Shown here piece by piece: positions 7,908 through 10,821 of a stretch of 62,684 nt of DNA. Where the stretch lies: contig JAICEW010000002.1 in NCBI GenBank assembly GCA_025923995.1, positions 1 through 62,684 on the forward strand, written 5' to 3'. Position numbers and translations under genes: made by a program. Position 1 is the stretch's first letter. Every line of letters begins with the position of its first letter. The stretch comes from Vicinamibacteria bacterium (GTDB taxonomy: Bacteria; Acidobacteriota; Vicinamibacteria; Fen-336). The notes under the pieces were generated by a model that saw only the letters and a list, made by a program, of their open reading frames with translations, was not told the DNA's origin and did not search any database.

Positions 7908-8366
7908 CTACTGCGCGCCCTTGCGCATCTTCATCGCGTGGCCCGCCGCCATCTCCGCGCGGGTCAGGAAGCCGTCCTTGTCCCCGTCCATCCGCTCGAA
8001 CATCGTCTTCGAGCCGGTGGCGTGCTCTTCGGCCGTCAGCATGCCGTCGCCGTTGGCATCGATGACCTTGATCTTCTCCGCGGCCGACATCTCGCCCGCG
8101 GCCGGCGCACGGCCCGTGATCTTCTGGTGGGCCATGGTCATCTCCTCGGCCGTGACCTTGCCGTCGGAGTTCGCGTCCATGGTCGCGAACATGCTGGTGA
8201 CGGCGGCCGCGTGCTCGGCCGCCGAGACCTTCCCGTCGCTGTCGGTGTCCATCATCTTGAACATGTGGTCGCCGCCAGGGGCCGGCCGGGCCGGGGGGTT
8301 GGTGTCCTGGGCACCGGCGATCCCGCAAGCGAGAGCGAAGGCGGCGACGAGCGTCGTGTGGGTCAT
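7908..8366 (-). CDS. Secreted EF-hand domain protein
   Basis: GGAGGAGG SD, signal peptide, four loops DTDSDGKVSAAE, DANSDGKVTAEE, DANGDGMLTAEE, DGDKDGFLTRAE. Confidence 0.9.
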   Translation of the reverse strand: MTHTTLVAAFALACGIAGAQDTNPPARPAPGGDHMFKMMDTDSDGKVSAAEHAAAVTSMFATMDANSDGKVTAEEMTMAHQKITGRAPAAGEMSAAEKIKVIDANGDGMLTAEEHATGSKTMFERMDGDKDGFLTRAEMAAGHAMKMRKGAQ

Positions 8367-8455: not shown

Positions 8456-8908
8456 CTAGGAGGTGCTCGGCGGGACGTCCGGGGCGAACCGCACGTCGAC
8501 GATCTCCGAGGCGAGCGCGTCCTGGGCGATCACGACGGAGCGCCCGGTGGCGGCCGCCTCCTCCAATCGCCGCGCGAGAACGTCGCGGCCGGGCTCGTCG
8601 AGCCTGAGGACGGGGACAGCATCGGTTCCGGCCAGCCGGACCCGCACGCGGTCGGGGGTCCCCGGGTCGGGCAGCAGACACTCGACCGTGTTCACGCTGG
8701 CATGCAGCAACAGCTCGACCCGGCCCGCGGCATCGCTGCGGACGTAGACGGGCCAGGCGTACTCCCAGCTCTTCGCGAGGAGACGCGCCCAGAAGTCGAA
8801 CCACCCCGACTCGCGGTCGAGCCGGCAGACGGTCCCGTCGTCGAGCGTGAAGACGTCGCCGGCGTCCGCGTCCAGGGACACGACCCAGCCCATGCGCGCG
8901 GGGCCCAT
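8456..8908 (-). CDS. Hypothetical protein resembling the N-terminal accessory domain of long-form protein-glutaminase homologs
   Basis: ATG 1 nt after upstream TGA (TGAAATG); RLD...PVYV...LRLD...LEEAAATGRSVVI...EIVDVR pattern. Confidence 0.6.
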   Translation of the reverse strand: MGPARMGWVVSLDADAGDVFTLDDGTVCRLDRESGWFDFWARLLAKSWEYAWPVYVRSDAAGRVELLLHASVNTVECLLPDPGTPDRVRVRLAGTDAVPVLRLDEPGRDVLARRLEEAAATGRSVVIAQDALASEIVDVRFAPDVPPSTS

Positions 8909-8909
8909 T

Positions 8910-9719
8910 TCAGGCCGTCCGCTCGAAATCGTCGTCGTCGTCGGCCGAGTCCTCGTCGGGCACGATCCCGTCGTCCTCCCAGGACGCCTCGTCGGGCACG
9001 ATGCCATCCCTCACCGGATCGTCCACCACCTCGGGCGGAGGAGGAGTGAAGGGCGGCGGCGCAGGAATGAACGGCGGCGGCGCCGACTCCGCGGCCGTCC
9101 TCGCCGCCCGCTCGCTGGCCAGGCCCCGGCCCTCCGCCTCCAGGCGCGCCTCCTCCAGCAGCCTCTGCGTCTGGCTGTAGTCGTCGTCGCGGGCGTCGAA
9201 GGGCTGGTAGACCTCGCCCGGCGTCTCCACCAGTTGGGCGCTGGGGCACGACATCACGGCCCTCCACTGCTCGATCGTCACCGGCCCGTCGAAGAGCGAC
9301 GGGTCGACGACCATGCGGACGACGACGCCCTGCGGCGTCTGCACAGCCACCGTAGGGGCCACGTGGTAGGACCAGGTGATCGTCCCGTGGACCGGATGCT
9401 CCGCGCCGATGCTGTGCCCCACCGTGGGGTGGAAGAAGACCTTGCGGCACTCGATGCCCTGCTCGGCCATGAGCCGCCGCATCTCGTGCGCACGCGCCGA
9501 GCAGTAGCTTTGCGGAAAGTCGAACGGGATGTGCTGCTGCGATCGCAGTTCGCCGAAGAGGGCGACCGCCCGCTCCAGGCTCAGCGGATTCGCGTCGGTC
9601 CCGGGTGCAGGCCCGGCGGGCGGCGGGCCACTGAAGCCAGCCACCTCACGGGCCCTCCTCGGGGTGAGGACGGCCCAGTGCGGCACCTCGATGAGACGAA
9701 CGGGGGGCGGTCCACCCAT
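8910..9719 (-). CDS. Protein-glutamine glutaminase (Gln deamidase) family catalytic domain with Pro/acidic tail
   Basis: IPFDFPQSYCSARAHEM (catalytic Cys), WSYHVAP (His), VVDPSLF (Asp). Confidence 0.8.
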   Translation of the reverse strand: MGGPPPVRLIEVPHWAVLTPRRAREVAGFSGPPPAGPAPGTDANPLSLERAVALFGELRSQQHIPFDFPQSYCSARAHEMRRLMAEQGIECRKVFFHPTVGHSIGAEHPVHGTITWSYHVAPTVAVQTPQGVVVRMVVDPSLFDGPVTIEQWRAVMSCPSAQLVETPGEVYQPFDARDDDYSQTQRLLEEARLEAEGRGLASERAARTAAESAPPPFIPAPPPFTPPPPEVVDDPVRDGIVPDEASWEDDGIVPDEDSADDDDDFERTA

Positions 9720-9765: not shown

Positions 9766-10821
9766 TCAGACCCCCCAGCCGTACGCGGTCGCCGCGTCCT
9801 CCTCGGGCGTGCGGCCCAGGCGCCGCAGGACGGCGACGGTGAACTCGCGCGTCGTGGCGTTGCCCCCGATGTCCGGCGTACGCGCGTCGCGCAGGGCGGA
9901 CTCGACGGCCGCCTCGACCGCGGCGGCCAGATCGGGCCGGCCCAGCCCGTGGCGCAGCATCATCGCGACCGAGAGGATGGCGCCGGTCGGGTTGGCGATG
10001 CCCAGGCCGGCCAGCGTCGGCGCGGAGCCGTGTACCGGCTCGAACAGCGGCGTGCCCTCCCCCAGCGACGCCGACGCCAGCAGCCCGATCGAGCCCACCA
10101 CCGCGCCCAGCTCGTCGCTGAGGATGTCCCCGAACAGGTTCTCGGCCAGGATCACGTCGAAGCGGCGCGGCGCCTGCAGCAGCTCGAAGCTGGCCGCGTC
10201 GACGTAACGGTGCTCGAGCTCGACGTCCGGGTACTCCCGTCCCACGCCGGTCACGACGGCGCGCCACAGCCGCGACGCCTCCAGCACGTTGGCCTTGTCC
10301 ACCGACGTGATGCGCCGGCGTCGCAGCCGGGCCGCCTCGAACGCGACGCGGGCGACGCGGCGCGCCTGCTCGGCGGTCTGCCGCCAGGTGTTGAACGCCT
10401 CCTCGCCGCCCTGCCCGCGTGGCTCCCCGAAGTACACGCCGCCCGCGAGATCACGGACGACCAGCAGGTCGGCGCCGCGCGCGAGCCCCTCGCGCAGGGG
10501 CGTCGGCAGGCCCAGGTAGCGGGCCGGACGCAGGTTCGCGTAGAGGCCGAGCCCCTGCCGCAGGCGCAGCAGGCCGCTCTCCGCTCGGAGCGGACCCTCC
10601 CAGCGCGGCCCGCCGACCGCGCCCAGCAGGATCGCGTCGGCATCGCGGCACGCCGCCAGCGTCTCCGGCGGCAGCGGGTCGCCGTGGTGGTCGATGGCGT
10701 CGCCGCCGATGCGCGCCTCGCGCACGTGGACGGGCACGCACGCGCCGAGCACGCCCAGCGCCGCCTCCACCACCTCGGGGCCGATACCGTCGCCGCGCAG
10801 GACCGTCACTCGAGCAGCCAT
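9766..10821 (-). CDS. leuB: 3-isopropylmalate dehydrogenase
   Basis: GDGIGPEVV, LYANLRP, VDKANVL, ENLFGDILSD, FEPVHGSAP, NPTGAILS; leu operon context. Confidence 0.95.
   Translation of the reverse strand: MAARVTVLRGDGIGPEVVEAALGVLGACVPVHVREARIGGDAIDHHGDPLPPETLAACRDADAILLGAVGGPRWEGPLRAESGLLRLRQGLGLYANLRPARYLGLPTPLREGLARGADLLVVRDLAGGVYFGEPRGQGGEEAFNTWRQTAEQARRVARVAFEAARLRRRRITSVDKANVLEASRLWRAVVTGVGREYPDVELEHRYVDAASFELLQAPRRFDVILAENLFGDILSDELGAVVGSIGLLASASLGEGTPLFEPVHGSAPTLAGLGIANPTGAILSVAMMLRHGLGRPDLAAAVEAAVESALRDARTPDIGGNATTREFTVAVLRRLGRTPEEDAATAYGWGV

Follow-up and report, generated by a model that had tools for sequence, protein, structure and literature searches.

A 62,684-nucleotide stretch of contig JAICEW010000002.1 of a Vicinamibacteria bacterium (phylum Acidobacteriota, assembly GCA_025923995.1), hereafter called the window, bears on its minus strand two adjoining genes, gene 1 and gene 2, that encode a putative protein-glutamine deamidase (protein-glutaminase) and a small partner protein, respectively. 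Nearly all that is known of protein-glutaminase concerns a secreted enzyme of Bacteroidota used in food processing. The comparisons made here show that the protein-glutaminase fold is used far more widely, by leaderless enzymes that are either paired with or fused to a domain unnamed in databases, referred to as the lid, of which the gene 2 product is a separately encoded form. The features of the locus are collected in Table 1.

Table 1. Features of the enzyme/lid locus and of its downstream neighbour, numbered along the window (aa, amino acids; ORF, open reading frame).
Feature	Position	Strand	Remarks
Gene 1	8910–9719	minus	269 aa; stop codon 8910–8912 included; ORF and translation
N-terminal motif MGGPPPVRLIEVPHWAVL	9666–9719	minus	residues 1–18; followed by a Pro-rich linker to about residue 45
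Catalytic Gln_deamidase_2 core	9252–9563	minus	residues 53–156; Pfam envelope, reproduced by genome search
Triad codons	Cys73 9501–9503; His119 9363–9365; Asp139 9303–9305	minus	read in the DNA
C-terminal tail	8913–9107	minus	residues ~205–269; Pro-rich, then highly acidic, with two DGIVPDE repeats and the end DDDDDFERTA
Gene junction TGAAATG	8906–8912	minus	gene 1 stop, 1 base, gene 2 start
Gene 2	8456–8908	minus	150 aa; stop codon 8456–8458 included; ORF and translation
Loop A93-G-T-D-A97-V-P99	8612–8632	minus	second repeat; in the model between strands 87–92 and 100–102, before helix 108–121
EIVDVR motif	8489–8506	minus	residues 135–140; most conserved strand of the family
EF-hand protein gene	7908–8366	minus	152 aa; downstream of the pair; signal-like N-terminus MTHTTLVAAFALACGIAGAQD

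The gene 1 product matches the Pfam family PF18626 (Gln_deamidase_2) with an E-value of 3.9e-26 and 91.8 bits (cut-off 25) over residues 53–156, and the Chryseobacterium protein-glutaminase chains 2ksv, 2zk9, and 3a54 in PDB with E-values of ~1e-15. Cys73, His119, and Asp139 occupy invariant columns across 19 homologs and align with the triad region of 2zk9/3a54. The Cys-His-Asp motifs that an earlier sequence-only reading of this DNA had claimed for gene 1 are therefore confirmed by the family match and the intact triad, and domain and triad together establish, as far as sequence can, a catalytically competent protein-glutamine deamidase. With the NCBIfam equivalog NF040782, which represents the Chryseobacterium enzyme, gene 1 scores 81.2 bits against a cut-off of 250, the catalytic part alone being aligned. 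By these scores the protein is a member of the protein-glutaminase superfamily but not the Chryseobacterium-type enzyme.

The same reading held that gene 1 lacks both a signal peptide and a pro-region, and it was right on both counts: the N-terminal 52 residues, which begin with MGGPPPVRLIEVPHWAVLTPRRAREVAGFSGPPPAGPAPG, are Pro-rich, contain no hydrophobic signal segment, and are too short for a pro-region. Here and below, signal peptides were called by eye and with a simple hydrophobicity rule. A twin-arginine translocation (Tat) or general secretory (Sec) signal was considered and rejected on inspection, the arginine pair not being conserved. The database gene call for gene 1 (P0009) has 244 aa and starts with MAGFSG..., as against 269 aa from the ATG at 9719 (the region concerned is 9645–9719). 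The motif MGGPxPVxLIExPxW at the extended N-terminus is kept in the homologs P0010–P0025, down to 40% identity; because of this conservation, the ATG at 9719 is taken as the start, and the 244-aa call is probably 25 residues too short.

At the other end of the protein, the DG(I/L)VP(D/E) repeats of the tail are kept in homologs, as well as in a second paralog found in related contigs, and are absent from the homolog in the related genome G020. The acidic tail could serve as a partner-binding or export motif. Among the ORFs of the genome, both the DGIVPDE tail and the N-terminal motif are unique to gene 1, and the idea that gene 1 bears a shared sorting signal was rejected on account of this uniqueness.

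In contrast to the enzyme, gene 2 has no sequence match in Pfam, NCBIfam, PADLOC, PHROG, or PDB; no Pfam DNA-binding domain was found in it, and its relatives are labelled 'hypothetical protein' in databases. A profile built from gene 2 and six close homologs was searched against 1.84 billion representative proteins (E ≤ 1e-3) and returned 82 matches, 76 of which are genuine after removal of five repeat artefacts and one 84-aa fragment. The genuine matches comprise 58 standalone proteins (~130–220 aa) and 18 fused ones (346–380 aa), the latter with the lid match at residues ~20–165 and a glutaminase domain after it, as judged with hidden Markov models (HMMs); PF18626 was found in all ten fused proteins that were scanned against Pfam. 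It had been proposed that gene 2 resembles the domain preceding the catalytic domain in long-form glutaminase homologs, and alignment of gene 2 with the N-termini of such homologs (the 18 fused proteins among the 76) bore this out. The motifs quoted in support, RLD, PVY, L..A..TGRSV, and EIVDVR, are all in gene 2 and are conserved in the N-terminal domain of the fused homologs. By sequence comparison, gene 2 thus encodes, as a protein by itself, a homolog of the domain that precedes the catalytic domain of the fused relatives. Among 35 diverse family members, I136 within EIVDVR is nearly invariant, and no Pfam family recurs. The family, at least 76 clusters at 50% identity that have so far been 'hypothetical proteins', thereby becomes a named partner.

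Two minor results of the sequence searches may be added. A first profile scan of genome contigs with a narrow gene 2 alignment gave no confirmed loci. Residues ~17–55 of gene 2 (8744–8860), within the first repeat, matched CyaY/frataxin at borderline significance in a profile search (E 0.02, 'tLeFengsklIinRQeP.hqvW'), which probably reflects a shared beta-hairpin pattern.

Further evidence on the nature of gene 2 comes from structure prediction. The AlphaFold2 (AF2) model of the protein (predicted local distance difference test, pLDDT, 85; predicted template modelling score, pTM, 0.73) consists of two similar beta-beta-beta-alpha-beta units. When the model was compared with PDB by Foldseek, the top three matches were to pro-protein-glutaminase (3a56, 3a54), with E 2e-3, probability 1.00, 73 aligned columns, and a root-mean-square deviation of 1.6–2.1 Å. 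The matches also include the Flavobacterium pro-form 8z3i, and the next ones are generic B subunits resembling the oligonucleotide/oligosaccharide-binding (OB) fold. The entries 2zk9 and 2ksv, which contain the mature enzyme only, are absent from the list, and hence the match is to the pro-region. In addition, the fused homolog L027 from a Verrucomicrobiia metagenome-assembled genome (MAG) was modelled with 13 sequences (pLDDT 83, pTM 0.81); it aligns with the pro-forms over 292–302 columns (target TM-score 0.64–0.70, E 1e-16) and with the mature enzyme over 168 columns (E 7e-12), so that its N-domain evidently joins the same superposition. At modest significance, then, the modelled gene 2 domain shares its fold with the pro-region that inhibits the secreted protein-glutaminase.

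Family profiles matched 3a54 in the pro-region only (chain residues 30–94, E 0.17–0.22); with the whole-repeat profile, 3a54 was found at E 0.17, ranked behind spurious matches to de novo TIM barrels, and hhalign against four Bacteroidota pro-regions gave a probability of 54% over the second repeat. The near-gapless offset between profile and chain (17–81 to 30–93) places a conserved Ala within ~1 residue of position 47 of the pro-region. The family consensus at the loop listed in Table 1 is S-x-A-x-H, with Ala97 of gene 2 at this motif. The occurrence of A47Q in PDB entry titles indicates that residue 47 of the pro-region is functionally relevant. According to the 2011 work of Hashizume and colleagues, the zymogen pocket is reportedly covered by a short pro-region loop that connects two strands, with Ala47 above the catalytic Cys, and the A47Q titles are consistent with such a position of the loop. 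Ala97 of gene 2 may be equated, tentatively, with Ala47 of the zymogen.

The two genes are tightly coupled. Translational coupling, claimed in the sequence-only reading, is supported by the junction TGA-A-ATG, in which gene 2 starts one base past the gene 1 stop. The 1-base spacing recurs, as TGA-C-ATG, in a 95% identical metagenome copy (L092), and in other phyla the enzyme and partner genes overlap by 4 bases or lie 0–3 bases apart. Both genes are intact and under purifying selection (dN/dS below 0.5: 0.21–0.37 for gene 2 and 0.47 for gene 1), and each is single-copy in the 6.8-Mb genome, with no extra or orphan copies.

To see the pair in a wider context, 185,579 species genomes were scanned, which gave 117 confirmed PF18626 loci; 80 of them were kept and scanned with our own HMMs. 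At about 28 of these 80 loci, a gene 2 homolog lies ~20–400 bases after the enzyme gene and shares its strand, and 14 loci encode a fused protein with the lid first and the enzyme after it. The partner lies upstream only at one locus and on both sides at another, and about 35 loci, mostly from Bdellovibrionota and Bacteroidota, have no detectable partner. Enzyme-then-partner is thus the commonest arrangement of the family and not an oddity of the window. Accordingly, the description of the locus as 'split and permuted' stands with respect to the order in the fused and zymogen forms but not as a local peculiarity. Among 61 related genomes, a PF18626 gene is present in two, the window's own and G020; the G020 enzyme gene is also followed by a gene 2 homolog, but in another neighbourhood. 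Related metagenome contigs contain the pair together with its surroundings at 58–86% identity, and four of six sampled metagenome partners lie directly after a glutaminase gene. Recurring in the related contigs, in G020, and in about 28 of the 80 genomes, which belong to many phyla, the pairing goes far beyond chance.

On an unrooted catalytic-domain tree, 13 of the 14 fused forms make up one clade (support 95), and at least five clades contain split forms. The window enzyme falls into a group together with its orthologs from metagenomes, the second paralog that lacks a partner, and G020; this group adjoins both the fused clade and a clade of pairs linked to vgrG/PAAR genes. A fused permuted form with a C-terminal lid was considered for the Flavobacterium/Mucilaginibacter clade and rejected, the extensions there being helical and unrelated.

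It seems probable, though well short of certain, that the locus is a two-protein zymogen-like unit in which gene 2 acts as a plug in trans; a stoichiometrically co-made enzyme and plug is the best-supported reading of the evidence and is held with much the same confidence. Gene 2 would be translated off the same message as gene 1, one base past its stop, and its product would bind the enzyme 1:1 during synthesis. The loop A93–P99 would then lie over the substrate pocket as a pseudo-substrate plug, like the Ala47 loop of the Chryseobacterium zymogen. Plugging of the gene 1 active site in trans is most likely the role of gene 2. The one indirect support for occlusion of the catalytic pocket is the pTM of 0.81 of the fused L027 model. 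Such a natural, separately encoded inhibitor could help control the industrial enzyme.

Several observations weigh against the trans plug. We infer inhibition by gene 2 from its homology to fused forms and to the zymogen. At sequence level, gene 2 is weakly linked to the Chryseobacterium pro-region (E ~0.2), and with a profile restricted to the loop-bearing half, 3a54 was not found. The second PF18626 paralog found in the related contigs is not accompanied by a dedicated partner gene, and the other two of the six sampled gene 2 homologs are not beside a glutaminase gene: one is next to an ADP-ribosylglycohydrolase gene and the other beside neither gene. No catalogued defence or antitoxin family in PADLOC or PHROG matches the pair. 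Finally, TssC (PF05943, the type VI sheath protein), WXG100 (a type VII marker), and VirB4 (a type IV marker) were not found in the window's genome, and TssC was not found in 60 related genomes. As for the non-adjacent homologs, the lid domain may serve other enzymes too. A divergent subgroup of lid proteins of ~190 aa (P0049, P0065, and P0084) was noticed, in which the P0049 gene lies 140 bases after an ADP-ribosylglycohydrolase gene.

The closest known counterpart of the window pair is the Chryseobacterium proteolyticum/Flavobacterium enzyme (EC 3.5.1.44), whose single chain comprises a signal of 21 aa, a pro-region of 114 aa, and a mature part of 185 aa, and which is secreted and proteolytically activated (PMC6132073, PMC9396377). 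This pre-pro enzyme (3A56/3A54 for the pro-form, 2ZK9/2KSV for the mature form, and 8Z3I) shares with gene 1 the catalytic fold and the Cys-His-Asp triad, and with gene 2 the fold of the pro-region; the same logic of a lid over the active site is proposed for both. Unlike it, the window enzyme has neither a signal nor a pro-region in cis, and its lid is made separately from the gene that follows, has 150 aa, and contains two repeats where the pro-region has one. The fused PF18626 proteins (346–380 aa and ~1080 aa, e.g., in Nocardioides islandensis L017 and Reyranella soli L012), none of which has been characterised, are homologous to the window proteins in both domains and likewise lack signal peptides. 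They differ in being one chain with the lid first, in forming one clade on the catalytic-domain tree, and, in many cases, in having a PPPYxxCP end, a Trp-rich linker, or a C-terminal membrane anchor.

A comparable logic is found in the SpeB–Spi system of Streptococcus pyogenes, where Spi, a free inhibitor homologous to the SpeB propeptide, is encoded directly downstream of the enzyme and protects the cytoplasm of the producer. Propeptide-like free inhibitors of proteases are also represented by the MEROPS families I9 and I29. SpeB keeps its own propeptide and signal, both of which are lacking in gene 1, and it differs from gene 1 in fold family and chemistry, being a peptidase and not a deamidase. 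The resemblance is an analogy of logic, not homology.

In other phyla, the enzyme/lid pair is found in weapon loci. It lies directly behind a full vgrG gene in L062 (Geobacterales) and L069 (Methylococcaceae). In L043 (Acidobacteriaceae MAG), vgrG is followed by a small gene, a PAAR-glutaminase fusion, and the partner; in L065 (Verrucomicrobiaceae MAG), it is followed by a glutaminase with an N-terminal extension that was read as PAAR by sequence inspection and has no Pfam hit. A ClpB/ClpV-like ATPase gene is located upstream in L013. In eight loci of proteobacterial type (Pseudomonadota and two Thermodesulfobacteriota MAGs), the enzyme has no signal and the partner has a signal peptide or a lipobox. 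At least 11 of the 58 standalone lid representatives carry such a signal peptide or lipobox, as compared with none of the 18 fused forms. A leaderless enzyme with an exported partner is the standard layout of a periplasm-acting type VI effector with a periplasmic immunity protein, and gene context shows the pair to be a type VI effector and its immunity protein in other phyla. The enzyme/lid pair is thus a payload of type VI secretion loci in several phyla, which makes protein-deamidating toxins a plausible biology for the protein-glutaminase family and offers a clear example of one domain serving both as an immunity-type protein and as the pro-region of a zymogen.

No paper connecting PF18626 with either immunity proteins or type VI secretion was found. 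The family is not mentioned in a portion of the 2012 polymorphic toxin catalogue, and one classification paper records Dot/Icm genes in the vicinity of some of its members. An Actinoallomurus protein of 1320 aa was also observed, with the glutaminase domain at its C-terminus and a weak WXG100-like match before it.

Like the type VI papain-like pairs (amidases of the Tse1–Tsi1 type) and the pairs of L043, L062, L065, and L069, the window pair combines a small leaderless Cys-His enzyme with a candidate protective gene directly downstream. In the window, this gene lies on the same strand, one base after the leaderless enzyme gene. The window pair differs from those pairs in that its lineage has no type VI system and its partner is not exported. 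Gene 1 has no PAAR domain, and the window neighbours, leuB and an EF-hand gene, provide no vgrG, hcp, or PAAR linkage; neither window protein has a signal peptide. The toxin-immunity-like character suggested for the locus therefore holds for its relatives, by vgrG/PAAR context and exported partners, and does not extend to a type VI system in the window's own lineage.

One alternative to the trans plug is that the pair is an exported weapon here too, i.e., an interbacterial effector-immunity pair that leaves the cell via a route other than type VI, IV, or VII, with the N-terminal motif or the DGIVPDE tail as a targeting signal and gene 2 protecting the producer. The type VI pairs among the relatives speak for it, as do the sporadic occurrence of the pair in differing neighbourhoods, the conservation of terminal motifs outside the catalytic core, and the host itself, a 97%-complete diderm MAG with 14 matches to the Omp85 family. 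At the same time, without TssC, WXG100, and VirB4, and with no TssC among the relatives, a weapon has no delivery route in this lineage; gene 2 without a signal peptide would protect the cytoplasm only, and the tail motif cannot be a sorting signal shared among proteins, as it is confined to gene 1 in this genome. Export as a weapon is thus possible but doubtful.

As no type VI system is present in the lineage, the pair in the window is most likely a self-contained toxin/antidote or a regulated deamidase, and we lean towards a role in conflict because of the relatives and the sporadic distribution. Two more far-reaching ideas, to be taken together as speculative, go beyond this. In this diderm soil lineage without markers of type VI, IV, or VII secretion, the pair may be wholly intracellular and represent a new toxin-antidote system or a stress or phage switch, in which loss of the plug would free the deamidase to act on the cell's own proteins. 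More generally, deamidases with the protein-glutaminase fold may form an undescribed toxin superfamily in which immunity proteins, pro-regions in cis, and fused N-domains are all one lid domain; if so, zymogen inhibition and toxin immunity share a common origin.

It has also to be considered whether gene 2 is mainly a folding helper, an 'intramolecular chaperone' acting in trans that is afterwards released or degraded, with the enzyme being cytoplasmic and having a housekeeping or regulatory function. In many secreted hydrolases, the pro-region also acts as a foldase, coupled translation would give 1:1 synthesis, and the locus stands right after the leu operon with a host-like GC content and no terminator-like site in between. 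Such a role is nevertheless rather unlikely: a pair present in two of 61 related genomes is too sporadic for housekeeping, and in other phyla it is the partner and not the enzyme that is exported, which fits protection better than co-folding. The roles of folding helper and inhibitor are not mutually exclusive.

That gene 2 is a substrate or a specificity adaptor of the enzyme and not its blocker is very improbable. The zymogen loop reportedly mimics a substrate, to judge from the A47Q entries and the 2011 work mentioned above, and Gln129 is invariant among the close homologs of gene 2; in the wider family, however, Gln129 is not kept and Thr dominates, the loop position is Ala and not Gln, and both the fusions and the immunity contexts point to inhibition. 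Finally, the notion of chance neighbours or a decaying remnant without joint function can be all but dismissed, since the pairing is kept across phyla, fusions exist, the ORFs and the triad are intact, and dN/dS is low for both genes.

The trans plug having been weighed against these alternatives, the surroundings of the pair remain to be described. The leuB gene ends at 9766 on the minus strand, and gene 1 and gene 2 follow directly after it. The GC content of the pair is ~72%, the same as that of its surroundings, and a foreign composition was rejected on this ground. The DNA from leuB to the EF-hand gene showed no sigma-70-like promoter and no intrinsic terminator. In the related metagenome contigs, the order is leuA-leuC-leuD-leuB, enzyme, partner, EF-hand protein, and AraC regulator. 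The EF-hand gene follows the pair in all close relatives seen (L001–L003, L092, and the P0011 contig), its products there giving weak EF-hand_7 matches; it is syntenic with the pair and may belong to the system. In the P0011 contig, a group II intron reverse transcriptase (RVT_1 and GIIM) replaces the AraC gene, ~700 bases past the EF-hand gene. The second PF18626 paralog (~250 aa), which is absent from the window, lies between the EF-hand and AraC genes of the related contigs (L001 6846–7601; L004 353–1108; L005 492–1220); its Cys and His motifs are separated by an insert, and its tail is likewise of the DGIVP type. In G020 (L089 4618–7472), the pair is preceded by genes for three tandem coiled-coil proteins, with apolipoprotein-like matches below the cut-offs, and followed by a 264–305-aa ORF without a family match.

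The fused and rearranged relatives show further variation. In proteins of ~1070–1100 aa from Reyranella, Azoarcus, Saprospiraceae, and others (L012 4401–7586, L016, L018, L022, L036, L039, and L052), the lid and glutaminase domains come first and are followed by ~700 residues without a Pfam match and a C-terminal hydrophobic anchor. The short fused forms (L027 1737–2879, L017, L031, L061, and L077) bear a Trp-rich hydrophobic stretch in the linker, e.g., LWCWCGWPWWWFRCRC, and have GPPPYxxCP at their C-terminus; this Trp-rich stretch also forms the end of some standalone lid proteins (P0068). In Bacteriovorax stolpii (L056 4423–5938), the order is lid, enzyme, lid, all three with signal peptides, and the lids of Bdellovibrionota consist of the second repeat only. 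In two Solirubrobacteraceae MAGs (L081 4173–5750 and L082), proteins of 526–550 aa have an annexin repeat before the glutaminase domain, with a short lid-like ORF located downstream.

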